Shown: positions 11,182 to 63,983, counted from the first letter of the stretch. The stretch is 64,000 nucleotides of DNA from Candidatus Shapirobacteria bacterium (GCA_041659325.1 JBAZYN010000001.1:494819-558818), one strand, 5' to 3'. The notes: generated by a model from the letters alone, not told the origin. Program-made: numbers and translations.

Positions 11182-11410
11182 GACCTATCTTATCATAGCC
11201 AAGGGCATAAAAATCGATTCTAGGGCCTCTGGTGAGGCTATATATAACTTTTCCCTATTCTTAGGCCTTTTCCTACCGGTCCTCCCGATTTTTACCCTGA
11301 GGGGAGTCAATGTCCAATTTTATGCCTGACAAACCGGTTCGACCGACTGGGGCAACCGATAGGCGAAACGGGGTTATCTATTAACATTCAGTTGTCGCCA
11401 CATAACATTA

Positions 11411-11446
11411 TCTGAATAAATAATTCGTAATTCGTAATTGTTAATT
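11411..11446. repeat. tandem heptamer array (TAATTCG/TAATTGT/TAATTAT)
   Basis: Five consecutive 7-nt units; in the 680-bp intergenic region next to xer. Confidence 0.4.
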
Positions 11447-11821
11447 ATTAATTAAGTGACTCCTCCCCTCCACTTCCACTTCAGAGTACTTCGTGAAAGA
11501 TACATTCTACGAAGTTACAAATATGCCACCTACCCGCCGGGGTAGAATAAACAAATGTTTTACTCACTTCCCCATAATTTACTCTAATCATTTATTAATT
11601 CGAAATTGATAATTCTTAATTGGTTCAACCCTTCCCCTGGGCTACACCTGCCCCTCTCGTGATACATTGGCGTTTTGTAAGTTTTCCACACAGACTATAT
11701 CACTCTATATCACGGTAATTGTGAAAACTATAGGACATTATGTGAAAATTATAGGATATTATAGGACTATATATTATAGGTCTAGCACTTCCCTCCTCCC
11801 CTGCCAACCCCCTCACAAAAA

Positions 11822-11856
11822 AATTACCGATTACTGATTACAAATTACTAATTACA
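11822..11856. repeat. tandem heptamer array (GATTACT/GATTACA/AATTACT)
   Basis: 7-nt periodicity immediately 3' of the minus-strand membrane-protein gene. Confidence 0.4.
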
Positions 11857-11864
11857 AAATTTGA

Positions 11865-15584: not shown

Positions 15585-16249
15585 GATTTCTTCCTTTTTA
15601 TCTTAACCAATAACGGATCAAGCACTTCTCCAAGAATAAACAATCCTCCCAGATTTATCAAGCCGGCAAACAAAAGTACCCCAAAAAAAACCCACTTGTT
15701 AATTATCAAAAAATATACCGCAAGGAGCATGAAAAACACCATATTGGCAAAGAAAAACCTAAATCCCTTCCGGCCACTTCTATACCAAACAAAGGACCGA
15801 TACCGATTTTTCACCCACGTCGAAATCAAAAGACTCAAAACAAATATTGCCGCTATCGCCCCCTCCGTTACCCCAATCTTCCCAAAATCCACCCCCGCCA
15901 ACCATACCCCCATCACCAAAATCAACATATTGTTGGTCATATCTTCAAGAAATGGCCATAATTTCCAACTATACTTCTGCGCTAGCACGGTTACAATCAT
16001 TAGTAATATCACATAACCACCGGCCAAATTTAATCCCCGATTTTTATAAAATATTACCCAATCACCAAGCGTACTCCACTCCCCCCAATTAGCCAGTCCA
16101 TAAGTTACCCTCCCCCCTATCAAAAAAGCCAACACCGCCAACCATGAAAAAGTAATCAAATCATCAACCCGATAACTATCTCTCAAATTTCTCCAGGTTA
16201 AATACAGAAACAATACAATTCCGATTATTGATAAGAACGGAAAAACCAT
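15581..16249 (-). CDS. probable prolipoprotein diacylglyceryl transferase (Lgt-like)
   Basis: Polytopic membrane protein; GGRVTYG and YKNRGLNLAGGYV loosely match Lgt motifs; operon context with lspA. Assignment is tentative. Confidence 0.45.
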   Translation of the reverse strand: MVFPFLSIIGIVLFLYLTWRNLRDSYRVDDLITFSWLAVLAFLIGGRVTYGLANWGEWSTLGDWVIFYKNRGLNLAGGYVILLMIVTVLAQKYSWKLWPFLEDMTNNMLILVMGVWLAGVDFGKIGVTEGAIAAIFVLSLLISTWVKNRYRSFVWYRSGRKGFRFFFANMVFFMLLAVYFLIINKWVFFGVLLFAGLINLGGLFILGEVLDPLLVKIKRKKS

Positions 16250-17950: not shown

Positions 17951-18014
17951 AATTACTAATTACAGATTACAGATTACTGATTACAGATTACTGATTACAG
18001 ATTACCAATTACCA
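17951..18014. repeat. tandem heptamer array (AATTACT AATTACAG ATTACAG ATTACTG ATTACAG ATTACTG ATTACAG ATTACCA ATTACCA)
   Basis: Nine 7-nt units immediately 3' of dnaB. Confidence 0.6.
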
Positions 18015-33614: not shown

Positions 33615-33646
33615 TTTATTTGAATTCTATAATTTCTAATTACAGA

Positions 33647-33672
33647 TTACTAATTACTGATTACAGTTTACC
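33647..33672. repeat. tandem heptamer array (TAATTACAG ATTACTA ATTACTG ATTACAG)
   Basis: Immediately 3' of recR. Confidence 0.5.
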
Positions 33673-39293: not shown

Positions 39294-40934
39294 CTAATAC
39301 AATTGCTCTAATTTATCTTTTAATGTTTGTTTAAACAAAGCTGTATCAATTCCGTTAACCTTACAGTTCCCGTCCATATCGGCCTGTAAGTAGCCACCGT
39401 CATCTACCTCGTCAATTCTGGTTGCGGCTGATTTCACATAAGAGTAATCAAGACCGTCAACCACCCCATCGGGTACTCCAACCGTCGCTCCGGTCACATC
39501 ACCCGGCATTACCGGATATCTCGAAAAATCATAAAGTGGTGTTGTGTCTGCATCATCGGTCAGAGCTAAATTACCCCATGTCGAAGCAAAATATTCAGAT
39601 TGGTTATCAATCCCATACTTCACCTGAAGATGCTTTGGTCCCTTAAAAAATACGGCTATTCCCTCATAATATGGGAAGTCCGTCAAAACTACTTGGCCTC
39701 CATAAACAACCCTCTCGCTTATTGACGTGTTCAGTACCGGTATCTGCCCGGGATATATCTTAATAGTCCCCTCCGGTGCCAAAACTGTCACCGTCACCGG
39801 CCAATTTACCGCACACATATTGCCCGCCAGTACATCCCTGTAAGAAATCATGTATTTCAAAATCGGCCAACCGGCTGTCATTGGTGGCGTCTCTGTCGGC
39901 AAAAGAGTGTTGGTTGGCCTTAACGTATTTGTCGGCCTCGGTGGCGTCTCTGTCGGCACATCGGCCAGTGGTGTTTCTGTGGGCATCAGGGTATTTGTTG
40001 GTTTTAGTGTATTCGTTGGTCTCACTGGCGTGTTAGTTGGGACGAGGGTATTGGTCGGTCTCAATGTATTCGTTGGCTTCACTGGTGTTTGTGTAGGCCT
40101 CAGCGTATTGGTGGGAATAAGCGTTCCTGTCGGTCTCAATGTATTCGTTGGTCTCACTGGTGTGTTAGTTGGGACGAGGGTATTGGTCGGTCTCAATGTA
40201 TTCGTTGGCTTCACTGGTGTTTGTGTAGGCCTCAGCGTATTGGTGGGAATAAGCGTTCCTGTCGGTCTCAATGTATTTGTTGGTTTTGGTGTAATAGTCG
40301 GGGTCACTTCCGACTGGCTGCCATCTTCAATCACATAACTCATCCCGGTAACTCTATCTATCGACATCGCCGTATCGGTAGTCGTTGAATTACCCGACAC
40401 AACCGATTTACTCTTATCAAGAGTTATCATCCCCGTCGTTGTCGATCCGCCCGCCGTAAACATCAATTTGGCCACATTTACCACTCCGGAGCTCAAATCC
40501 GCTTCCGGCTTGTTAGAAGTCACCGATAAATTAATACATCTATTAATCCCCGCAGGGTAATTGCTGCCACCAACCGCTACCATCATCGACAATGGCACCT
40601 CATTAAACGAGCTCGTTTCTTTATTTACAATTATCACTTTGTCCAAATCAGTCTCATCAACCGAAAGCTTAGTACTGTCATAACAAACCTGAGTGGTTAC
40701 CCCCACTACTTTCGCCTTTTCCGACCCACCCGTTACGTTCCCCGTTTCAACCCACAACTGCACTGGAAAAGCCTCATTCATTTTCAATACTCTGTTCTCG
40801 GGTAAAAGAAATAATTTTGATCCGGCAAAGTACGCCCCGCTTCTGGTATCCCTGCTCCTGCCGGTCAAAAACACTGCCCCGGCAAGAGCGATCAGCAAGA
40901 CCACCCCAAAAACAATGGTCCCTGCCTTTTTCAT
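39294..40934 (-). CDS. secreted protein: cohesin-like N-domain, Thr/Pro-rich tandem repeats, C-terminal type-I-like dockerin
   Basis: Signal peptide. PTNTLRPTGTLIPTNTLRPTQTPVKPTNTLRPTNTLVPTNTPVR repeated. Dockerin duplicated segment GVPDGVVDGLDYSYV ... ADMDGNCKVNGIDTALF. Confidence 0.7.
   Translation of the reverse strand: MKKAGTIVFGVVLLIALAGAVFLTGRSRDTRSGAYFAGSKLFLLPENRVLKMNEAFPVQLWVETGNVTGGSEKAKVVGVTTQVCYDSTKLSVDETDLDKVIIVNKETSSFNEVPLSMMVAVGGSNYPAGINRCINLSVTSNKPEADLSSGVVNVAKLMFTAGGSTTTGMITLDKSKSVVSGNSTTTDTAMSIDRVTGMSYVIEDGSQSEVTPTITPKPTNTLRPTGTLIPTNTLRPTQTPVKPTNTLRPTNTLVPTNTPVRPTNTLRPTGTLIPTNTLRPTQTPVKPTNTLRPTNTLVPTNTPVRPTNTLKPTNTLMPTETPLADVPTETPPRPTNTLRPTNTLLPTETPPMTAGWPILKYMISYRDVLAGNMCAVNWPVTVTVLAPEGTIKIYPGQIPVLNTSISERVVYGGQVVLTDFPYYEGIAVFFKGPKHLQVKYGIDNQSEYFASTWGNLALTDDADTTPLYDFSRYPVMPGDVTGATVGVPDGVVDGLDYSYVKSAATRIDEVDDGGYLQADMDGNCKVNGIDTALFKQTLKDKLEQLY
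40021..40284. repeat. near-perfect 132-bp tandem duplication inside the dockerin-protein CDS
   Basis: Unit beginning CTCACTGGCGTGTTAGTTGGGACGAGG recurs 132 bp later with only a few substitutions. Confidence 0.7.
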
Positions 40935-45968: not shown

Positions 45969-46108
45969 CGTCATTGCGATCCGCCAACTGGCGGAGTGGC
46001 AATCCCTGCCTGCCGGCAGGCAATCTTTACAGGATTAAAATAGTCAAGCTGTTTCAAGATTGCGGAGCCTGTCCCGAGAAACGAGGGATCGTTTCTCCTC
46101 GCAATGAC
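45969..46108. mobile_element. MITE-like element copy C (140 bp; TIR CGTCATTGCGA / TCGCAATGAC)
   Basis: Begins 2 nt after the GH stop codon. Internal CCGCCAACTGGCGG, GTGGCAATC and CCTGCCTGCCGGCAGGCAATCTTTAC modules. Confidence 0.55.
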
Positions 46109-46126
46109 AAAACAGTTCTCACTCTT

Positions 46127-46213
46127 AATTCGTAATTAGTAATTAGTAATTTTGGAATTTTATTACAGGTTACAGATTACTTATTACAGATTACCAATTA
46201 CAGGTTACCAATT
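46127..46213. repeat. tandem heptamer array (TAATTCG TAATTAG TAATTAG ... TTACAGG TTACAGA ... ATTACCA ATTACAGG TTACCAA)
   Basis: About 12 units directly 3' of rseP; overlaps its stop codon. Confidence 0.6.
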
Positions 46214-47258
46214 ATTTGAATATCCTCACCACATCACCGGCTGTGATCAAAAATATCAAAAACAACAACACCACCATTCCGAAATTATTAATAGCCGTTT
46301 CAAACTTTTGGTTGACCCGTTTTCTGAAAATCATTTCATAAACCACAAAGATTATCCTTCCTCCGTCCAAAGCCGGAAAAGGTAAAATATTTACCACCGC
46401 CAAATTTACAGATACTATCGCAAAAAAATGTACCACCGCCAACATCCCCTGGTTTTGTTTGATACTACTTGTCGCCTGAAACATCCCAATTGGCCCGCTC
46501 ACATCTTTTGGCACTCTGCCCTGAAATAGTTCACTCACCATGCCGATCACTCCGCTTCCAATAATTTTTCCCCAATAATAAGCCTCTCGAAAACCAGCCC
46601 CAATCCCTTTATGTATCTCATACCACTTCATTGGCACCATTTCCGTGTTAGATACCGTCACCCCCATTCCGCCCTCACCTGCCGGAGGATTTTCCCTTAC
46701 AAAAACTTTTACTTCTCTTTCGACTTTTAGACTTTCGACTTCTAGACTAATTTCTTGTCCCTTATATTTTGCCACTTCATCTGTCATCTCTCTTGCGCTA
46801 AAAACCGGTTTACCCTCAACTTCGACCACCGAATCTCCTTCTTTAAGCCCTGCCATTTCCGCCGGGCTACCCCCGGTAATTCCTATTATCTTCACCACCT
46901 TTATATCCGTCGGCACACCGGAAACGGAATAAACAAACGAAAAAATCGCTATTGCCAAAACCAGATTCATCAACACTCCCCCCAAAACCACCATCATCTT
47001 CTGCCACGGTTTTTTATTATTAAACGCCACCCCACCCTTTCCGTCTCCATCTTCGCCATACAATTTACAAAACCCTCCGATCGGCAGCCAATTCAAACTA
47101 AAAATTGTTCCGCCAAATTTTTTCCCCACGATTCTCGGTGGCAAACCCAATCCAAATTCTTCCACCTTTACCCCGGTTTTAATCGCCGCAAAATAATGGC
47201 CAAACTCATGAACCAAAACCAAAATAGAAAGCGCAATTATAAAAATTAAAATATCCAT
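46212..47258 (-). CDS. rseP: RIP metalloprotease RseP (site-2 protease) with PDZ domain
   Basis: HEFGHYFAA HExxH motif in TM1, PDZ domain, C-terminal LDG motif. Contains an in-frame 30-nt CTTTCGACTTTTAGA x2 repeat. Confidence 0.9.
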   Translation of the reverse strand: MDILIFIIALSILVLVHEFGHYFAAIKTGVKVEEFGLGLPPRIVGKKFGGTIFSLNWLPIGGFCKLYGEDGDGKGGVAFNNKKPWQKMMVVLGGVLMNLVLAIAIFSFVYSVSGVPTDIKVVKIIGITGGSPAEMAGLKEGDSVVEVEGKPVFSAREMTDEVAKYKGQEISLEVESLKVEREVKVFVRENPPAGEGGMGVTVSNTEMVPMKWYEIHKGIGAGFREAYYWGKIIGSGVIGMVSELFQGRVPKDVSGPIGMFQATSSIKQNQGMLAVVHFFAIVSVNLAVVNILPFPALDGGRIIFVVYEMIFRKRVNQKFETAINNFGMVVLLFLIFLITAGDVVRIFK

Positions 47259-47265
47259 CTTTATG

Positions 47266-47298
47266 TGATCTGTAACCGGTAATCTGTAATCAGTAATT
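47266..47298. repeat. heptamer array in inverted orientation (CTGTAAC CGGTAAT CTGTAAT CAGTAAT)
   Basis: The only array in the opposite orientation; lies between the rseP start and the four-helix-bundle gene. Confidence 0.45.
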
Positions 47299-47399: not shown

Positions 47400-47705
47400 C
47401 TATTTTAGATCTTTTGCTAACAAAATAAAATTTTGAACTTCCTTTAGCGATCCTCTTGCTTGAAAATAGAATTTAATTTTATCATTAAAATGATATCTAC
47501 CAAATCCCTCTGCTATATTAGCACTAATTGAGCTCGCAGCCCTCCTTAGCTGATCACAAACTCCATATTTCTCAACTCGAGGGAACTTATCCAATATTTT
47601 ATAAACAGAAATCACCAAGGCGTGTGATTCCTTCCATGAATTTAAATCATAAAAATCCAATATTCTCCCCATCTTCCTATCACATTCTACCAGTTTGATT
47701 ACCAA
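47400..47705 (-). CDS. four-helix-bundle protein (23S rRNA intervening-sequence protein family)
   Basis: KFPRVEKYGVCDQLRRAASSISANIAEGFGRY ... ARGSLKEVQNFILLAKDL is the signature of the TIGR02436-type family. Confidence 0.75.
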   Translation of the reverse strand: MVIKLVECDRKMGRILDFYDLNSWKESHALVISVYKILDKFPRVEKYGVCDQLRRAASSISANIAEGFGRYHFNDKIKFYFQARGSLKEVQNFILLAKDLK

Positions 47706-47770
47706 TTACAGGTTACCAATTACAGGTTACCAATTACAGGTTACCAATTACTGATTACTGATTACTGATT
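47697..47770. repeat. tandem heptamer array (GATTACC AATTACAGG TTACCAA TTACAGG ... ATTACTG ATTACTG ATTACTG)
   Basis: About 10 units between frr (3' end) and the four-helix-bundle gene start. Confidence 0.65.
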
Positions 47771-48341: not shown

Positions 48342-48379
48342 AATTACCAGTTACAGATTACAGATTACAGGTTACCAAT
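48342..48379. repeat. tandem heptamer array (AATTACC AGTTACAG ATTACAG ATTACAGG TTACCAA)
   Basis: Directly 3' of tsf. Confidence 0.55.
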
Positions 48380-48838: not shown

Positions 48839-48861
48839 TTTTTTATTTTAATATTAATTTA

Positions 48862-48897
48862 CAATTACAGATTACTGATTACAGATTACTGATTACC
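48862..48897. repeat. tandem heptamer array (AATTACAG ATTACTG ATTACAG ATTACTG ATTACCA)
   Basis: Directly 3' of rpsB. Confidence 0.55.
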
Positions 48898-50602: not shown

Positions 50603-50650
50603 ACTACAGATTACAAGTTACAGGTTACCAATTACTGATTACCAATTACC
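50603..50650. repeat. tandem heptamer array (CTACAG ATTACAAG TTACAGG TTACCAA TTACTGA TTACCAA TTACC)
   Basis: Lies inside the ORF-poor 1.8-kb region. Confidence 0.55.
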
Positions 50651-51595
50651 AAAATTTTTTCCTGGGTTGTTAACGAACAGGAACGTTTAAACGACATTTG
50701 TCGTTTATTACGTTCAGGACAGGAACAAAATCATCTCAAAACCGCATTGGTTCCTAATAATTTTGTTACGAAAAACAATCCGATTATATCACACTATACT
50801 AGTCCTTGTCCCTGGGGACACTATTCCCCACAAAACCTTCTTCCCTAGGTCCATATCGCTTCAACCATCGCCCCAACTTGGCCGTCCTCTTTAACCCTTC
50901 GGCTCTTTCCTCTGGACTTTCCCTGGCAACAACTACAACTGCCGGTGGTATCTCTTCCGCCACTGTTACCATAACTTCCCTTGCTTTTGCCCCCAATCCG
51001 GGCATTGGCATCTGAATCGTCAGGGCCTCCAACGTTTTTCCCATTAACCTATTTTAATCCATATTTAAAAAATAAAAACAACAAGACAACTCAAAACACC
51101 AAAAAACAAACAAAGTGGAGTGACCACCATCGTGCATGGTCACCCCACCCGTTGTCTTCGCCCTCGGCGATCTTTGGGACTTACCCAATGACCGCCGATA
51201 TTAGCGACAGAAAACCCCAGCTAGCCAACGCGGTGGGGATCAGGACAAACAAAAGGCAAAACCCCCCACCCTCCGAAGCAGGCTGGTCGTCGTTCTTCTG
51301 CGTAGCCGCTAGCTGAAAGAAGGACAATGCCGCACAAAGTGCGAGCAAAGAGCTAGCCGCAACCCACCTGATTTTCATCTTCATGCGATTTTCCTTTCTG
51401 GCCAATGGCCATGAGTTGTCTTGTTGTCAACGAACCAGTCTTCAGCAAACCGCCGCTTACAGATATAAATCTTTGGCAATCTGCTAAAACTATATCTTAT
51501 AATATCACATATCATCGAAAAATACAACAATATATTTACATAACAGACAAAATCATAAACCCTGTTTCCGTCCAATATTAGTGTAAAATCAAACT

Positions 51596-54004: not shown

Positions 54005-56044
54005 TTAAGGTTTCTTCCACCCTGCCCACTTACACTCCGGATATTTCGAGCAGCCATAAAATTTCTTGCCGCTCCGGGTTCTCTTTATTACCACCGGCGC
54101 CCCACACGTCGGACAGTCAAATCCGGCCACTTCCTGATACTGTTTAGTATACCTACACTCCGGAAACCGGCTACAAGAAATAAACTTCCCGAATTTCCCC
54201 AGTCTAATAACCAGCTCCCCCTCCTTACACTCCGGACATTTTTCCCCCAATTTTTCCGTCTCCACCTTCACTCTCTCTGCCCCGGCTTCGGCTATTTTTA
54301 CATCCTTCTCAAATCTGTTCCAAAATGTTTTCATCATTTTTTTCCAATCCAATTTTCCCGCCGCAATTTTGTCCAAATTACCCTCCATGTCAGCCGTAAA
54401 CGGCAACGACAAAACTTCAGAAAAATTCCTTACCAAAAATTCATTGGCCGCCTTGCCCAATGCTGTTGGGATAAATTTCCCCTCATCCTTTTCCACATAC
54501 TGTCGAATCTGAATAGTCGAGATAATCGGCGCATAAGTACTTGGTCGCCCGATTCCCTGTTTTTCCAGGCTCGATACCAAACTTGCCTCGGTATATCTTG
54601 GCGGTGGGTTAGTTTCCGACTCCTCAAACCATATCTTTGTAGCCGAAATCATCTCTCCTTCTTTTAAAGCCGGCAATATCTGATCTTCAAATTTCTCTCC
54701 ATTAATCTTCAAAAACCCATCAAAAATCATCCTTACTCCTTTTGACTGAAACAGACCGCCTCCGTCTCGCAGATTAACCACCGTACTTCCTGTTATCGCC
54801 GCTGCCCCCTGTGTTGCCACTGCCCGTTTCCAAATCATTTGGTATAGTCTATTCTCCCTCGGGTCTGCATCCGCCAGTTCTGTCCTATTTACGTCTGTCG
54901 GCCTGATAGCCTCATGCGCCTCCTGGGCATTCTTGGCCGTATTTTTATAGTACCTGATCTTTGCCGATATATACTTTTCTCCGTATGTTTTGCCGATATA
55001 TTTTCTGAAATCATTTATCGTTTTTTCGGCAATATAGACCGAATCAGTCCGATGGTATGTTATAAAGCCTCTTTCAAACAATCTTTGCGCCACACTCATT
55101 GTCGTTTTCCCTGGCCATCCAAACCTCCTGGCCGCTGCCTGTTGAAGTTTTGATGTTGTAAAAGCCGGCAGCGGCGTTCTGTTAATTTCTTTCTCTGTTA
55201 CTTTCTCGACCACCATTTGGTTTGATAGGTCATTCACGAATTTCGTCACCTTCTGCCTATCCTCAAAAATCGACTTGGTAAAAGAATAAACCCCGTCAAA
55301 TAGTTTGATCTTTTCCGTTTTAAACGCCGACTTTTCTTCCACCTTTATCAGATCAGCGTCAAACTTTTCCCTCCCCTTTTTCAATTCCGCCAATACCTTA
55401 AAAAACACTTCTTTTTTAAATGCCTCAATCTCTTTTTCCCTTTCGCACACCAGTCTCACCGCCACCGACTGCACCCGCCCACCGGACAAACCTCTCCTTA
55501 CTTTTCTCCACAAAACCGGAGATAAAGTATAACCCACCACCCGGTCAAGAATCCTTCTCCCCTGCTGCGCGTTTACCAAATCCATATCCACCGCCCGTGC
55601 TTTTCCCATCGCATCAGAAATTGCGTCCTTAGTAATTTCATGAAATGTTATTCTGCTGATATCAAGCTTCTTTCCCACTTTCAAACTTTCAGACTTTCCC
55701 ACTTTCAGACTTTTAGACTTTAAGACTTTTGACTCATCTGGATGCGTCAGCAACCACTCCACATGCCACGATATTGCTTCCCCTTCCCGATCCGGATCTG
55801 TCGCCAACAATACTCTTTTAACTCTGGCCGCAGTTCTAATAAGGTCCTCTACCACATTTTTTTTCTTGGGATCGATCTTGTAATCCGGCTCAAAACCGTG
55901 TTTAATATCCACCGACATCTTATTCCCCGGCAAATCTCTCAAATGACCCACGGTCGCAATCACCTCAAAATCTTTTCCCAAATATTTCCCTATAGTTTTC
56001 GCTTTCGTCGGCGATTCCACTACCAATAAACTCTTGTCTCCCAT
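54005..56044 (-). CDS. topA: DNA topoisomerase I with C-terminal zinc ribbons
   Basis: Toprim N-terminus LLVVESPTKAKTIGKYLG ... GHLRDL, active-site Tyr region, several C4 ribbons (CPECKEG ... CSRFPEC; CPTCGA ... CSKYPEC). Carries an in-frame SLKVGK low-complexity repeat insertion. Confidence 0.95.
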   Translation of the reverse strand: MGDKSLLVVESPTKAKTIGKYLGKDFEVIATVGHLRDLPGNKMSVDIKHGFEPDYKIDPKKKNVVEDLIRTAARVKRVLLATDPDREGEAISWHVEWLLTHPDESKVLKSKSLKVGKSESLKVGKKLDISRITFHEITKDAISDAMGKARAVDMDLVNAQQGRRILDRVVGYTLSPVLWRKVRRGLSGGRVQSVAVRLVCEREKEIEAFKKEVFFKVLAELKKGREKFDADLIKVEEKSAFKTEKIKLFDGVYSFTKSIFEDRQKVTKFVNDLSNQMVVEKVTEKEINRTPLPAFTTSKLQQAAARRFGWPGKTTMSVAQRLFERGFITYHRTDSVYIAEKTINDFRKYIGKTYGEKYISAKIRYYKNTAKNAQEAHEAIRPTDVNRTELADADPRENRLYQMIWKRAVATQGAAAITGSTVVNLRDGGGLFQSKGVRMIFDGFLKINGEKFEDQILPALKEGEMISATKIWFEESETNPPPRYTEASLVSSLEKQGIGRPSTYAPIISTIQIRQYVEKDEGKFIPTALGKAANEFLVRNFSEVLSLPFTADMEGNLDKIAAGKLDWKKMMKTFWNRFEKDVKIAEAGAERVKVETEKLGEKCPECKEGELVIRLGKFGKFISCSRFPECRYTKQYQEVAGFDCPTCGAPVVIKRTRSGKKFYGCSKYPECKWAGWKKP

Positions 56045-56057
56045 GTTTATAAAATTT

Positions 56058-56178
56058 ATTTACTAAATTACTAATTACAGACTTGCCTGCCGGTAGGCAG
56101 GTTACCAGTTACTGATTACAGATTACCAGTTACCGGTTACAGATTACCATTTACCAATTACTGATTACCAGTTACAAG
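56058..56178. repeat. long tandem heptamer array with embedded palindrome GACTTGCCTGCCGGTAGGCAGGTTAC
   Basis: About 15 heptamer units (ATTACTA ATTACAG ... TTACTGA TTACAGA TTACCAG ...) between the 133-aa gene and the topA start. Confidence 0.6.
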
Positions 56179-56210
56179 TCTATATATTATCACCACCTGT
56201 CAAGCTTTCA

Positions 56211-56626: not shown

Positions 56627-57295
56627 CTACAATCCTTCTAAATCTTCAATCCCCGTTACAATATTCGCCCCGTTTTTAATCAGATAATTTGGCGCTGCCG
56701 AATTGGTATCTGTCATTCTCCCTGGCACTGCCCATACCTCCCGCCCCTGCTCCGCCGCCAGCCTTGCTGTTACCAAAGTTCCGCTTCTTTTCGACCCCTC
56801 AATTACCACTACCCCCCTCGAGATTCCGGAAATTATTCTGTTTCTTGCCAAAAATTTTTCCGGGGCCGGCAATACTCCGTTTGCATATTCTGAAACTATC
56901 AACCCTCCACTAGCCAAAATCAATTCATAAAGCCACTTATTCGACCTCGGGCTAACCACGTCCACTCCCGAAGCCAAAACCGCAATTGTTTTCCCGCCCC
57001 TCTCAGTACAAACCCTTTGCACTTGAGCATCTACCCCAAAGGCCATCCCCGACACTACCACAATCCCGGTTCTGACCAGTTCCGGAACTAGCTTTTCCAC
57101 CACTTCTTTCCCGTATTCACTGATATTTCTGCTCCCCACCACCGCCAGGGCTTTCTTTTCTCTTAGCAACTCCGTATTCCCAAGACAATACAGTCTATCG
57201 GGGCAATCCGGTATCTGCCGCAGTAAATACGGAAAACTGTCACTATCTTTACAAATTACTTTTATTTCCACTCCTAAATCATATACTAACGTCAT
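56627..57295 (-). CDS. dprA: DNA processing protein DprA (Rossmann-fold core only)
   Basis: ALAVVGSRNISEYG ... VVSGMAFGVDAQ ... IISGISRGVVVIEGSKRSGTL DprA core motifs. The ATG start lies inside the CGTCATTGCG head of MITE copy F. Confidence 0.85.
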   Translation of the reverse strand: MTLVYDLGVEIKVICKDSDSFPYLLRQIPDCPDRLYCLGNTELLREKKALAVVGSRNISEYGKEVVEKLVPELVRTGIVVVSGMAFGVDAQVQRVCTERGGKTIAVLASGVDVVSPRSNKWLYELILASGGLIVSEYANGVLPAPEKFLARNRIISGISRGVVVIEGSKRSGTLVTARLAAEQGREVWAVPGRMTDTNSAAPNYLIKNGANIVTGIEDLEGL

Positions 57296-57362
57296 TGCGA
57301 TCCGCCAACTGGCGGAGTGGCAATCTTTTCTAGTCCTCCCTTCTTCAAGGGAGGGAATTAAA
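57290..57362. repeat. MITE-like family, partial copy F (CGTCATTGCGATCCGCCAACTGGCGGAGTGGCAATC plus a CCTCCC ... GGGAGG hairpin)
   Basis: The first 36 nt match copies C and E almost exactly; no 3' TIR found. Confidence 0.4.
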
Positions 57363-57385: not shown

Positions 57386-57457
57386 ATTACAGATTACAGA
57401 TTACAGACCTGCCTGCCGGTTTACCCGCCGTGGTGGGCAGGCAGGTTACAAATTACA
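57386..57457. repeat. tandem heptamer array with embedded palindrome CCTGCCTGCCGG ... GGGCAGGCAGG
   Basis: AATTACAG ATTACAG ATTACAG then palindrome then TTACAAA TTACATT; overlaps the PBP2 stop codon. Confidence 0.6.
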
Positions 57458-60246: not shown

Positions 60247-62217
60247 ATGAAATTAATACCCAGGGCAATTATTTTTTGCTACCTCCTGCTTTTCTTTTTC
60301 ACCCCCCTGATTTTCACCTCCTTTAATTCAGAGCTGTTCGAATTACCCAAAACTTACTTTGTTTTTGCCATTACTATACTTGTTCTTTCCCTTCATTTAA
60401 TCAATCATTTTGTCAACGCCACTCCCCTCTATCGCCGCAGCTTCCTGGACATCCCTTTTGCACTATTTCTACTCTCCCAAGCCATTTCCACCATTATTTC
60501 CATCGATCCCCACACCTCTCTTTGGGGCTATTATTCCCGAATGAACGGCGGGCTTTTATCCACCGTCTCATATCTCACCCTTTTCTGGGTTTTCAATGTT
60601 TACCTCACCGATTCTCTAAAAAACAAGCTAGTCCACACTGCCCTGATTTCCGGATTAATAGTCTCTGTGTACGGAATTTTGCAGCATTTCGGTATCGACA
60701 AACACCTCTGGATTCAGGATGTCCAAAACCGGGTTTTCTCCACCCTCGGCCAACCAAATTGGTTGGCCGCCTATCTTTGTATCCTTATCCCTTTTGCCAT
60801 TTTGAAATTTCTTAATTCCAAATCAAAGTTACAGTTTACTGTTTACAGTTTACTGATTACCGTTTTTTATCTGTGTCTCCTTTTTACCAAATCCAAATCA
60901 GGTATTCTTGCCGCCATCATCACCATCTCTCTCTTTCTTATTATCTATTCCCAAAAAACAAAAAAAATTCTATTACCGATTATCGTTTCCGGCTTAGTGA
61001 TTATTTTTCTTTTTACCGTCAACAATCCCATTCAAAATCGCCTTTCCCCCTCCTCCCCCCAAACTCCCTCAGCCCTGTCAGAGGTTACCGCCGACACTAA
61101 TATTACTGCCTCAGAAGATATCAGAAAAATTGTCTGGCAAGGTGCCTTTGACCTCTGGAAACGTTTCCCCGTCCTTGGCACCGGAGTAGAAACTTTTGCC
61201 TATTCTTATTACTGGACCAGGCCGACCTCTCATAATCTCACCTCCGAGTGGGACTTTCTCTACAACAAAGCCCACAACGAATATTTAAACTACCTCGCTA
61301 CTACCGGCGCTCTAGGCTTACTTGCCTACCTCCTCATCATTTTCACCGTTCTCAAAAAATTAATCCCTAATCACCAATCCGATATAGAAAACCTGGCTAT
61401 CCTCTCCGGCTTCTCCGCCATTTTGATCACCAATGCCGCCGGTTTTACCGTCGTTGTCTCATCTTTATTTTTCTTCCTTCTTCCCGCCCTCATCAAAATC
61501 CCGCCACAGGTTATTACTCCAAAAGCCAAACTAAAAGATAATTTTTTTACCATTCCCCTTGTCATTTTTACCCTAATCTGTGGCAGCTATCTTTTCAACA
61601 CCATTACCGCCTATTATCTAGCCGATATCGCCTTCGCCCAATCCGAAAATACCGATGCCGACCAAGAGCCTCAAACTGCCTATGACTACATCGGCGCCGC
61701 CATTAAATTTCGACCCACCGAGCCCTTGTACCAAAGCAAGATGTCTACCATCGCCGTCAAACTCGCTTCCATCGACAAACAATCGCAAGACAACAACATC
61801 AAGATCGCCCTGGCCGCTTCTGACAAATCCGTTGCCGATTCTCCGGCCAATGTTAACTTTTGGAAAGAACGAGCCCAAATGTTTATTTACCTGTCCACCA
61901 TCGATTCAAAATATTTTACCGACTCCATCGAGTCCCTTCTCTCCGCCTCCCGTCTTGCTCCCACCGATGCCAAAATTTTTTATCTTATCGGTCGTTTTTA
62001 TCTTACTGCCGGCCAAACTCCAGAGGCCCTTTTGTACTTTCAAAAAGCCATCGACCAAAAACCAAACTATGATTTTGCCTATTTTGATATGGGGAAAATT
62101 TATTTGGATCAGAAAGACTATCAAAAAGCCAAAGAATCATTTGAAACCACCCTAAAAATCGCCCCAAAAAACACCGACGCCCAAAATTACCTTGATCAAA
62201 TCAACCTCCTTGACTAG
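60247..62217 (+). CDS. O-antigen ligase (Wzy_C) family membrane protein with C-terminal TPR repeats
   Basis: About 10 TM helices. Periplasmic loop WQGAFDLWKRFPVLGTGVETF ... NKAHNEYLNYL matches Wzy_C. C-terminal TPR-like helices. Contains an in-frame heptamer stretch at 60828-60865. Confidence 0.7.
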   Translation: MKLIPRAIIFCYLLLFFFTPLIFTSFNSELFELPKTYFVFAITILVLSLHLINHFVNATPLYRRSFLDIPFALFLLSQAISTIISIDPHTSLWGYYSRMNGGLLSTVSYLTLFWVFNVYLTDSLKNKLVHTALISGLIVSVYGILQHFGIDKHLWIQDVQNRVFSTLGQPNWLAAYLCILIPFAILKFLNSKSKLQFTVYSLLITVFYLCLLFTKSKSGILAAIITISLFLIIYSQKTKKILLPIIVSGLVIIFLFTVNNPIQNRLSPSSPQTPSALSEVTADTNITASEDIRKIVWQGAFDLWKRFPVLGTGVETFAYSYYWTRPTSHNLTSEWDFLYNKAHNEYLNYLATTGALGLLAYLLIIFTVLKKLIPNHQSDIENLAILSGFSAILITNAAGFTVVVSSLFFFLLPALIKIPPQVITPKAKLKDNFFTIPLVIFTLICGSYLFNTITAYYLADIAFAQSENTDADQEPQTAYDYIGAAIKFRPTEPLYQSKMSTIAVKLASIDKQSQDNNIKIALAASDKSVADSPANVNFWKERAQMFIYLSTIDSKYFTDSIESLLSASRLAPTDAKIFYLIGRFYLTAGQTPEALLYFQKAIDQKPNYDFAYFDMGKIYLDQKDYQKAKESFETTLKIAPKNTDAQNYLDQINLLD

Positions 62218-63116: not shown

Positions 63117-63983
63117 ATGAAAATAGTATTCTTTGGTTCATCGGAGTATTCACTACTCATTCTAAAGTGTCTTCAAAAAATCCAGGGTTTTGACGTTTCC
63201 GCAGTAGTTACCAAGCCGGACAAAGCCACCGGCAGGGACAAGCAAATCACCCCCAATCCCGTCTCCCGGTTTTGTGCAGACAATCATCTCCCCCTACTTC
63301 AGCCCGAAGCTTTTGACGACCAATTTTCCGATACCTTTCGGTCGCTTAAACCCGATTTGGGCCTATGTGTCGCCTATGGTCCGCCCTACTTCTCCCAAGA
63401 GTTGATTGACATTCCCAAGTACAAAATTGTCAACATCCACCCCTCTCCTTTACCAAAATACCGGGGAGCAACACCCGGACCATGGCAAATAATTAACAAC
63501 GAAACCAAAAGCGCTGTCACCTTTTTCCAAATCGATATTCTCCCCGATCACGGCCCTGTCATTACCCAAATCCCCTTCACTATTTCACCAGACGAGACAT
63601 CCTCTTCGTTTTACCAAAAAGCCTTCAACCTCGCCGCTGATAGTCTGGAAACTGTTCTCACCTCCTATATCCAAAATCCTCAATCACTGTTGCCTCAAGA
63701 CCACTCAAAAAAATCTTATTTCCCCAAACTCTCAAAAGAATCCGCAAAAATAGACTGGTCTTGGAACATCAACAAAATAGAGCACTTCATCCGTGCCCTC
63801 GACCCCTGGCCTATCGCCTGGACCGAGGTAACCAATTCCAAAAACCAGATTTTAAAAATGAAAATCTTTTCCTCGACTTTTGACTTTCGACTTTCGACTT
63901 TAAGACTCGGTACAGTCCAGATAGAAGGCAAAAAACCGATCCCCTGGGCCGAGGTAAAAGACTACTACCGGATTATCAAATAG
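63117..63983 (+). CDS. fmt: methionyl-tRNA formyltransferase
   Basis: MKIVFFGSSEYS; formyltransferase core NIHPSPLPKYRGATP. Divergent from def. C-terminal domain carries an in-frame GACTTT(C/T) repeat insertion. Confidence 0.9.
   Translation: MKIVFFGSSEYSLLILKCLQKIQGFDVSAVVTKPDKATGRDKQITPNPVSRFCADNHLPLLQPEAFDDQFSDTFRSLKPDLGLCVAYGPPYFSQELIDIPKYKIVNIHPSPLPKYRGATPGPWQIINNETKSAVTFFQIDILPDHGPVITQIPFTISPDETSSSFYQKAFNLAADSLETVLTSYIQNPQSLLPQDHSKKSYFPKLSKESAKIDWSWNINKIEHFIRALDPWPIAWTEVTNSKNQILKMKIFSSTFDFRLSTLRLGTVQIEGKKPIPWAEVKDYYRIIK

Follow-up and report, generated by a model that had tools for sequence, protein, structure and literature searches.

Evidence that a repeat-making process partly writes protein sequence in a Candidatus Shapirobacteria genome

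How do tandem repeats with units of only 7 or 8 nucleotides (nt) come to lie in frame inside housekeeping genes? The question is raised by topA and three further genes in a 64,000-nt stretch, hereafter the window, of a metagenome-assembled genome of Candidatus Shapirobacteria, which belongs to the Candidate Phyla Radiation (CPR, or Patescibacteria). A preliminary description of this DNA had read the repeat tracts as lineage-specific in-frame insertions seeded into coding regions by a repeat-generating process at the DNA level. Our comparisons of DNA and protein sequences support the view that a repeat-making process partly writes protein sequence in this genome, although the insertion part of the earlier proposal holds only for topA. 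With a probability of roughly 0.55, we propose that the tracts are coding members of dispersed short tandem-repeat families of this genome, made by strand misalignment, probably together with conversion between arrays, and filtered by selection.

All four tracts first described are present, and the names that had been given to the four genes agree with the Pfam matches. In a homology search the topA, rseP, and fmt products are 100% identical to database proteins named Candidatus Shapirobacteria. The genes and their tracts, the latter called with Tandem Repeats Finder (TRF), are as follows.

54005-56044, minus strand: topA, type IA DNA topoisomerase I, 679 amino acids (aa); Pfam Toprim, Topoisom_bac, and Zn_ribbon_Top1; PDB homologues at E = 1e-127; 100% identity to P0001
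55670-55735, minus strand: topA coding repeat, 8-nt units × 6.6 (TRF 55677-55729), 24-nt super-unit × 2.2
46212-47258, minus strand: rseP-like M50 site-2 metalloprotease with a PDZ domain, 348 aa; Pfam Peptidase_M50 and PDZ_2
46717-46748, minus strand: rseP coding repeat, plus-strand sequence CTTTCGACTTTTAGA / CTTTCGACTTCTAGA; period 15 (8+7) × 2.1, 94% matches (TRF)
63117-63983, plus strand: fmt, methionyl-tRNA formyltransferase, 288 aa; Pfam Formyl_trans_N and Formyl_trans_C; 100% identity to P0241
63873-63908, plus strand: fmt coding repeat, TCGACTT TTGACTT TCGACTT TCGACTT TAAGACTC; TRF 63873-63901, period 7 × 4.1, then one 8-nt unit
60247-62217, plus strand: Wzy_C (O-antigen ligase family) membrane protein with C-terminal TPR repeats, 656 aa; Pfam Wzy_C and TPR families
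60829-60865, plus strand: Wzy_C coding heptamer tract, TTACAGT TTACTGT TTACAGT TTACTGA TTACCGT; period 7 × 5.3 (TRF)

The unit length of 7/8 nt first reported stands for fmt and the ligase (7 nt) and for rseP (8+7); in topA the unit is mostly 8 nt, not 7 (plus strand NNNACTTT, sense AAAGTNNN), and a second TRF call (55670-55721) gives a period of 24 nt with 2.2 copies and 92% matches. The topA tract translates within ...ESKVLKSKSLKVGKSESLKVGKK..., the repeat-encoded peptide being KSKSLKVGKSESLKVGKK. The rseP tract encodes SLEVESLKVE, in a part of the Pfam PDZ match that varies in length and is probably a β-hairpin loop, and the fmt tract encodes STFDFRLSTLRL about 25 codons upstream of the stop codon. 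The ligase tract, which translates to KLQFTVYSLLIT, encodes a hydrophobic segment, LQFTVYSLLITV, that is presumably a transmembrane helix; like the intergenic arrays of the window, it is of the TTACNNN family, as had been proposed, with about five copies rather than three to four.

Chance as the origin of the tracts is ruled out by the excess of GACTT, TTAC, and period-7 arrays over expectation. In the window the pattern GACTTN{2,3}GACTT occurs 7 times against 0.14 expected, all 7 on the plus strand, and TTAC-N3-TTAC-N3-TTAC, with an expectation of 0, has 52 matches, of which 49 are on the plus strand. The census of arrays (at least three copies, expectation from a third-order Markov model) covered the window and 83 Shapirobacteria loci (about 0.8 Mb of related loci); it returned 99 period-7 arrays where 7.6 were expected, a 13-fold excess, with periods 5, 6, and 8 near expectation. 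Within open reading frames (ORFs) of at least 450 nt, array density is 110 per Mb for period 7 and 21, 12, and 3 per Mb for periods 6, 8, and 9, respectively, and most period-7 arrays in the sampled related loci fall within ORFs. In the control sample, composed of loci of diverse bacteria returned by a topA pattern scan (one Shapirobacteria locus, L003, is among the matches listed), period 7 reaches 10.9 per Mb in ORFs of that size. Nearly half of the controls' 25 period-7 arrays, coding or not, come from two Patescibacteria loci (12 arrays). A control locus from a Patescibacteria group bacterium outside Shapirobacteria (L009) carries nine period-7 arrays in 22 kb, with a perfect AACTTTG × 4.1 in an ORF (15723-15751). 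A period-7 process in coding DNA thus appears widespread among the sampled Shapirobacteria, and the phenomenon may extend beyond them.

An assembly artefact was considered and rejected, given that the tracts are shorter than a read, that a second assembly carries the topA tract, and that tracts occur at homologous sites in many independent metagenomes. In that second assembly (L167, from the Logan collection of public sequencing runs) the topA tract, whose loss on reassembly had been raised as a concern, is retained in identical form.

That the process acts on DNA is borne out by one motif read in both orientations, by homogenisation that spans codons, by units shared between genes, and by the period-7 excess. 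In the window the GACTTT motif is common to fmt, rseP, and topA, yielding KV/SLK/ES in the topA and rseP products and STFDFRL in that of fmt. It could instead be argued that low-complexity peptides (K/S/L/V-rich loops, hydrophobic helices) are favoured by selection or composition and that DNA periodicity is a by-product. The tract sites do suit such peptides (a lysine-rich loop, β-hairpins, a transmembrane helix), the fmt peptide STFNFKLSTL is widely conserved, and the topA loops of relatives are K/S-rich without clear repeats. This explanation is nevertheless largely refuted, and we consider it very improbable: a 7-nt period clashes with codon-level repetition, the peptide showing only a 21-nt super-period; the same motif on opposite strands gives unrelated peptides (KV/SLK versus STFDFRL); the 13-fold enrichment concerns period 7 and not periods 6 and 9; and the homogenised bases fall in all codon positions and alter residues.

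These homogenised bases are found at the fmt site, where seven lineages have a heptamer tract of constant length, each with its own unit, such as TCGACTT (window), TCAACTT (L095), and TCTACTT (L114). Read across units 1-5, the second base gives C,T,C,C,A in the window and likewise in L095 and L084, and this shared signature indicates common ancestry, probably from one ancestral array. At the third base, units 1-4 have G throughout in the window and A throughout in L095, and L084, the closest tract-bearing relative, has G,A,A,A; over units 1-5 of L114 this base reads T,A,T,T,T. This diagnostic third base spans codon positions 3, 1, 2, and 3, and its changes replace N by D and Q by R or L. Gain and loss of whole units as the sole mode of homogenisation in fmt is disfavoured, as the C,T,C,C second-base signature persists while the third base has been homogenised.

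Units are also held in common by different genes of one genome. In L114 the unit TTTCTAC occurs in both the ligase and fmt tracts, in L141 one ligase site (L4) and one fmt site (A) share a 30-nt array, GAAAATTGTAAATTGAAAATTGAAAATTTA, and the alternation between TGAAAAT (L095, L141) and TTAGAAA (L112, L147) co-varies over three sites in two genes. Heptamer periodicity at the ligase site that follows GQPNWLAAYLCIL recurs in many lineages, the unit being TTACNNN in the window, L158, L124, L150, and L157, CTTTCTA in L114, TCTACGA in L095, and ATCTACA in L112. Further heptamer sites in other lineages are ligase sites L2-L4 and fmt sites A and B. Altogether at least seven unit families of mixed composition coexist: TTACNNN, TAATTNN, TGAAAAT, TTAGAAA, AATTATT, ATCTACN, and NNACTTT. 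At two of these sites relatives have clear arrays and the window has degenerate heptamer remnants: ATCCAAA ATCCTCA ATCACTG at fmt site B (63654-63690) and TTACCGA TTATCGT TTCCGGC at ligase site L2 (60940-61000).

Are the tracts insertions, as had been claimed? In topA this claim is upheld, since the tract is absent from close orthologues, internally repetitive, and situated in a loop predicted to be disordered. The loop runs from DPDREGEAISWH to RITFHEIT in the Toprim domain. Among 120 Shapirobacteria homologues it is 18 aa long in 58, including the two closest (82-83% identity), and in the window it is 36 aa long; DNA alignment to the closest orthologues, L001 and L002, gives a net gain of 54 nt (18 aa). 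The loops of relatives already contain AAAGT quasi-repeats, on which the 54-nt gain is built. In the AlphaFold model, residues 107-124 are coil with a predicted local distance difference test score (pLDDT) below 50, between a helix (86-105) and a strand (128-132), and alignment to solved TopA structures leaves a gap at the tract position. The loop is a hot spot for inserts, unrelated ones in other lineages extending it to as much as 39-43 aa. In L158 it measures 43 aa (129 nt on the minus strand), and in L165 (10277-10354) it contains a GC-rich palindrome read in frame as SLACRQAG.

The rseP tract is no lineage-specific insertion. The three closest homologues (84, 80, and 77% identity) all have 348 aa, as in the window; the first carries the repeat and the other two have non-repetitive sequence of equal length. 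The tract was compared at the DNA level with two orthologues, L163 and L164. Against L164, at 68% aa identity and 69% nt identity over the gene, 29 of 30 nt in the tract are identical, the best 30-nt window of the gene, and the flanks match at 10-24 of 30. Homologous recombination of a long rseP segment between lineages was rejected, because only about 30-45 nt make up the identity peak and no stretch of the gene is less conserved than the upstream flank. The fmt tract is not a lineage-specific insertion either: near-identical peptides (STFNFKLSTLDL; SSTFNFKLSTLDLNQ) are found in about 31 of 120 homologues at 62-72% identity, and others have a form shorter by 2 aa or lack the hairpin. The window protein is 2 aa longer than the common form and has the length of the widespread heptamer form. 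The tract corresponds to strands 253-256 and 261-264 of the AlphaFold model (pLDDT 91.6), which make up a short β-hairpin of the C-terminal domain that is missing from many orthologues. In the ligase the tract shows no indel against a 69%-identical orthologue that itself lacks periodicity, contrary to the insertion reading; against L158 it is identical at 27 of 30 nt, in the 97th percentile of that gene's windows.

Lineage-specific in-frame insertion is therefore confined to topA, and rseP and fmt have the same sequence in distant orthologues, a finding that the preliminary description had itself named as contrary to its proposal. At the ligase and rseP sites and at fmt sites A, B, and C the change is length-neutral, and topA is the only net insertion. 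As judged from these alignments, periodic stretches have mostly taken the place of non-periodic ones of the same length. The suggestion that only frame-preserving multiples are retained fits the super-units of topA (24 nt) and rseP (15 nt) and fails for the tracts of relatives, which have about 4.3-5.3 units and are not multiples of three. A location in surface loops, which the preliminary description had named as a point to check, agrees with the disordered coil of topA; the fmt tract forms the strands of a β-hairpin.

In relatives the same sites in fmt, topA, and the ligase host palindromic in-frame inserts, so the sites are permissive. Sequence comparison and structural models support placing the tracts at homologous permissive sites that are probably a loop, two β-hairpins, and a transmembrane helix. 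At the exact hairpin site of fmt, L158 (9397-9528) has an in-frame insert with a palindrome of about 90 bp (DNA fold z = -3.7) that brings the loop to 44 aa and resembles Rickettsia palindromic elements (RPEs). P0304 (LPAGRHD) and P0311 (ATGWSASGR) have in-frame fmt inserts, known from protein sequence alone and suspected to be palindromic elements as well, and the ligase of L141 contains an in-frame palindrome, GGGCGTATTGCAATACGCCC, that differs from the GC-rich type CCTGCC...GGCAGG. The latter type, to which the palindrome read in frame in the topA loop of L165 belongs, occurs in the window at three sites (pattern CCTGCC(TGCC)GG...GGCAGG, 5 overlapping matches against 0 expected), with folds at z = -2.75 and -3.45 relative to shuffled sequence:

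56086-56101, no strand: GC-rich palindrome CCTGCCGGTAGGCAGG, inside a heptamer array, with AGACTT just before it
46005-46020 and 57408-57445: sister GC-rich palindromes, in or adjoining heptamer arrays

These elements bring into view the explanation that the tracts derive from a small mobile or copy-paste element, akin to a miniature inverted-repeat transposable element (MITE) or an RPE, that inserted in frame at permissive sites and was then inherited. The true insertions in the same loops of relatives (L158 fmt, L165 topA, L141 ligase) speak for it, as do the three hairpins adjoining heptamer arrays in the window, one of them after AGACTT, the net insertion in topA, and the presence of the same array, about 30 nt long, in more than one gene of a genome. 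We consider it quite improbable all the same. The GACTTT and TTACNNN tracts have no inverted repeats or predicted structure; for the topA, fmt, and rseP tracts, predicted folding is no stronger than that of shuffles (z = +1.5, +0.4, and +0.4), which rules out a hairpin or terminator structure for the GACTTT tracts and sets the tracts apart from palindromic mobile elements. Inspection by eye, without a formal test, showed no target-site duplications, three of the four tracts add no length, and the position signature common to lineages in fmt points to an old array evolving in situ and not to repeated insertion.

Beside the four coding tracts, the window has about 12 intergenic arrays, most of them TTACNNN arrays with units such as ATTACAG, ATTACTG, and GTTACCA:

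56060-56179, plus strand: largest intergenic TTACNNN array, upstream of topA
11822-11858, 17952-18012, 33630-33671, 46160-46214, 47264-47297 (reversed), 47697-47770, 48344-48375, 48859-48896, 50605-50652, and 57386-57407: other intergenic TTACNNN arrays, nearly all in one orientation
11421-11454 and 46126-46151: intergenic TAATTNN family

Most TTACNNN arrays begin within a few bases of the stop codon of a minus-strand gene, and in the sense of the transcript they read ...GTAATCN..., with TAA in all three frames. Such placement invites the explanation that heptamer arrays are functional cis-elements, binding sites spaced at 7 nt for a protein or RNA acting on DNA or transcript, possibly in termination, translational coupling, pausing, or nucleoid organisation; the genic copies would be kept or regenerated by selection on nucleotides, and genome-specific units would reflect co-evolution with the binding factor. 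Besides this placement and the strict TTAC core at period 7, the co-variation of units across loci within a genome would be expected from a single trans factor, the DNA of coding tracts is conserved well above the gene average between lineages with 54-68% protein identity, and a post-transcriptional role has been proposed for the TAACTGA heptamers of Beggiatoaceae (PMC4679880). Yet at least seven unit families are hard to square with one reader, the positions of coding tracts within genes are arbitrary, the tract is dispensable, close relatives lacking it at the same site with length unchanged, and no intergenic array of the GACTTT family was seen in this window. We therefore regard a cis-element function as unlikely.

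Could the arrays instead be contingency loci, in which changes of copy number by 7 nt switch genes or alter C-termini? Coding heptanucleotide arrays with this role exist in neuO of Escherichia coli, which is "on" only with a copy number divisible by 3 (PMC13001214); its unit AAGACTC resembles the last fmt unit of the window, and the closeness of the fmt tract to the stop codon would suit an altered C-terminus. Against this, the arrays are short (4-7 units), imperfect, and of mixed 7/8-nt units, they lie in housekeeping genes, their lengths are conserved across lineages, and both assemblies of the strain are identical (one comparison). Phase variation is thus extremely improbable here.

The same plus-strand orientation of the repeats in genes on opposite strands, noted in the preliminary description, is correct for all GACTTT tracts, and nearly all arrays, coding or not, have one orientation on the plus strand. 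This strand is C-rich: its GC skew is -0.12 to -0.41 in 4-kb bins over the whole window, whatever the direction of genes, which places the window in one replichore. Because TTACNNN has TAA in all three frames on the minus strand, the family can be coding only in plus-strand genes such as the ligase. We infer that the repeat process may be coupled to the replication strand.

How might coding members of dispersed repeat families arise? The molecular mechanism we favour consists of strand misalignment and/or ectopic conversion. Misalignment during replication, in a register of 7-8 nt, would create and homogenise quasi-repeats, an account that follows an older proposal relating heptamer excess to a polymerase footprint, as far as this is summarised in PMC4692102. 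Occasional slippage by an in-frame super-unit would add sequence, as with 24 nt (3 × 8) in topA and probably also with the 15-nt duplication of rseP and the 21-nt duplication of fmt. More often, transient misalignment (templated substitution) and/or conversion between arrays would copy bases or short patches with length kept, so that sequence becomes periodic and the units of a lineage drift jointly. Selection would purge frameshifts and orientations that create stop codons and would keep tracts only where the protein tolerates almost any peptide, such as the disordered Toprim loop, the stretch in the PDZ region, the dispensable Fmt hairpin, and the hydrophobic segment of Wzy_C.

Several observations weigh against this reading. 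Simple slippage does not easily explain periodicity without change of length or the same unit change at several loci, and an extra conversion or templating step must therefore be assumed; concerted change across loci, being hard for local slippage alone, also leaves room for the cis-element explanation or for a templated process. Unit pairs from different sites agree within one mismatch in 20% of cases within a genome and in 11% between genomes. In fmt, units share 5.60 of 7 bases within a lineage and 5.55 of 7 at the same position between lineages, and the case for homogenisation there is weak, resting on one diagnostic base per lineage chosen post hoc. The patchy distribution of tracts could also reflect a single ancient origin with many later losses. 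Variation in copy number was not observed, the sole second assembly of the strain, identical in the tract, differing at 3 positions in 3886 nt and possibly deriving from the same reads; slippage that continues today is therefore conjectural. Finally, coupling to the replication strand relies on one window with synteny, and hence orientation, conserved in all relatives examined, so that orientation cannot separate replication from other causes.

A more far-reaching version is that Shapirobacteria, and perhaps other Patescibacteria, have an active genome-wide process that writes or homogenises a genome-specific heptamer into dispersed arrays, housekeeping genes included. The route may be a trans-templated or conversion-based process, or co-evolution with a heptad-reading factor. 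We hold this to be rather unlikely; if true, units could shift jointly at several loci and replace coding sequence with no change of length, and loops, hairpins, and transmembrane helices would be partly specified by a repeat "drive" and not by selection on the protein.

Other repeats were seen in and around the window. In many relatives the DNA downstream of fmt contains a tract of 15-nt period (AAAAAAGTCGCCAAG-like, × 2-5) outside ORFs of at least 450 nt, which may encode a small repeat protein rich in Lys and Ala; the window ends before the corresponding region. The tracts are:

L114:7357-7432
L112:11239-11299
L095:9433-9479
L088:2613-2646
L123:11288-11318
L124:11137-11176

A dispersed intergenic element of about 36 nt with an internal hairpin, CGTCATTGCGATCCGCCAACTGGCGGAGTGGCAATC, occurs at 45969-46005 and 57290-57325, both copies just upstream of a GC palindrome or heptamer array. 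Within a 546-aa ORF (39294-40934, minus strand), a 132-nt repeat (39969-40284, × 2.1, 98% matches, internal 57-nt period) is of a different class, comparable in size to a protein domain. In a gene-free stretch of about 680 nt, short direct repeats of CTATATCACT (× 2), of the 21-mer TGTGAAAACTATAGGACATTA (× 2), and of ATATTATAGGACTAT (× 2) lie at 11400-11860, together with C-rich runs; the stretch has no Rfam or tRNA match. The Rfam and tRNA scan of the whole window returned only one tRNA-Leu and no known RNA family overlapping the arrays.

The heptanucleotide families known from cyanobacteria, Beggiatoaceae, and xanthomonads have figured mainly as curiosities of intergenic DNA without a known origin. 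In the reduced CPR genome studied here, repeats of this kind predominate among the tandem repeats in conserved housekeeping genes, with units that change in concert. This offers a natural experiment on two questions, how period-7 repeats originate and are homogenised (polymerase register, replication strand, or ectopic conversion) and to what extent neutral processes at the DNA level write protein loops, hairpins, and membrane helices. There is also a practical side, as the tracts produce local peaks of DNA identity and convergent peptides that can mislead orthologue alignment, detection of recombination, and phylogeny in CPR. In the literature searched, coding heptamer tracts are not described for Shapirobacteria or for other CPR, an absence that is no proof of novelty.

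The features of described families are found here in part. Head-to-tail 7-nt units make up the fmt, ligase, and intergenic arrays, with 8 nt in topA and 8+7 in rseP, and dispersed arrays with an excess specific to period 7 are present in the window and about 0.8 Mb of related loci, which is not a whole genome. Unit identity is not shared, the units being TTAC[ACT]NN, TAATTNN, and GACTTTN; the nearest described unit is TAACTGA, one mismatch from TTACTGA. Simple repeats with a heptanucleotide unit are over-represented in bacteria in general. Precedent for arrays in functional genes is given by the short tandemly repeated repetitive (STRR) sequences, units of which also lie inside the cyanobacterial RNase P RNA gene. 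The STRR heptamers of heterocystous cyanobacteria resemble ours in their head-to-tail 7-nt units, their many dispersed arrays (mostly intergenic in STRR), and their lineage-specific units. For these heptamers polymerase slippage tied to the polymerase footprint has been proposed, as summarised in PMC4692102, and the same summary describes the G-rich heptamer repeats of cyanobacteria and Xanthomonas as under-represented in coding regions. The differences lie in units (TTACNNN, GACTTTN, TGAAAAT, and others in the window, not CCCCAGT, TTGGTCA, CAACAGT, or GGGGAYT), in the host, which is CPR/Patescibacteria, and in location, as most arrays sampled here are in protein-coding ORFs at homologous sites of housekeeping genes.

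The TAACTGA direct repeats of Beggiatoaceae, Cyanobacteria, and Bacteroidetes (MacGregor 2015, PMC4679880) are one base away from TTACTGA/TTACAGA of the window and share a location at gene ends. Their arrays have stop codons in three frames in one orientation, and the few in ORFs encode the 7-aa repeat LSVISYQ (PMC4679880); likewise only the reverse orientation can be coding here, with LQFTVYS as the peptide. In that system, however, arrays stand just upstream of start codons and here mainly just after stops; coding cases are rare and peripheral (protein termini, hypothetical proteins), which is true of neither aspect here; and recurrence at homologous sites, co-variation of units between genes, and length-neutral replacement are not described there.

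Systems with repeats inside genes are more distant. RPEs are tolerated in frame in housekeeping genes at permissive sites (PMC10969869), and the resemblance extends to the palindromic in-frame inserts that relatives have at the fmt, topA, and ligase sites. RPEs are nevertheless about 150 bp long, palindromic, and always lengthen the gene, whereas we find non-palindromic arrays of 30-66 nt, three of four length-neutral; the palindromic feature of RPEs and MITEs is confined to the L158, L165, and L141 elements and the intergenic hairpins of the window. The AAGACTC variable number tandem repeat in the 5' coding region of neuO in E. coli K1 (PMC13001214) agrees in its coding 7-nt unit, in three units equalling seven codons, in slippage, here the proposed mechanism, and in frame as filter. 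It differs in having 3-53 perfect units, hypervariable between strains, that act as an on/off switch in a surface-modification gene, compared with short, imperfect, length-stable arrays in housekeeping genes. Tandem repeats of Borgs create amino-acid repeats (PMC9879509), and in common with ours they reflect a genome-specific process at the DNA level in intergenic and genic DNA, disordered segments, and strong selection on frame. Genic Borg units are divisible by 3, perfect, at least 50 nt in total, and recent, unlike the imperfect 7-8-nt units here and the old fmt array; in our tracts only the super-units (24, 15, and 21 nt) are in frame, and TRF matches are 75-94%. Taken together, the repeats of the window are of the same kind as the STRR and TAACTGA heptamers, with units that differ from those of every described family.

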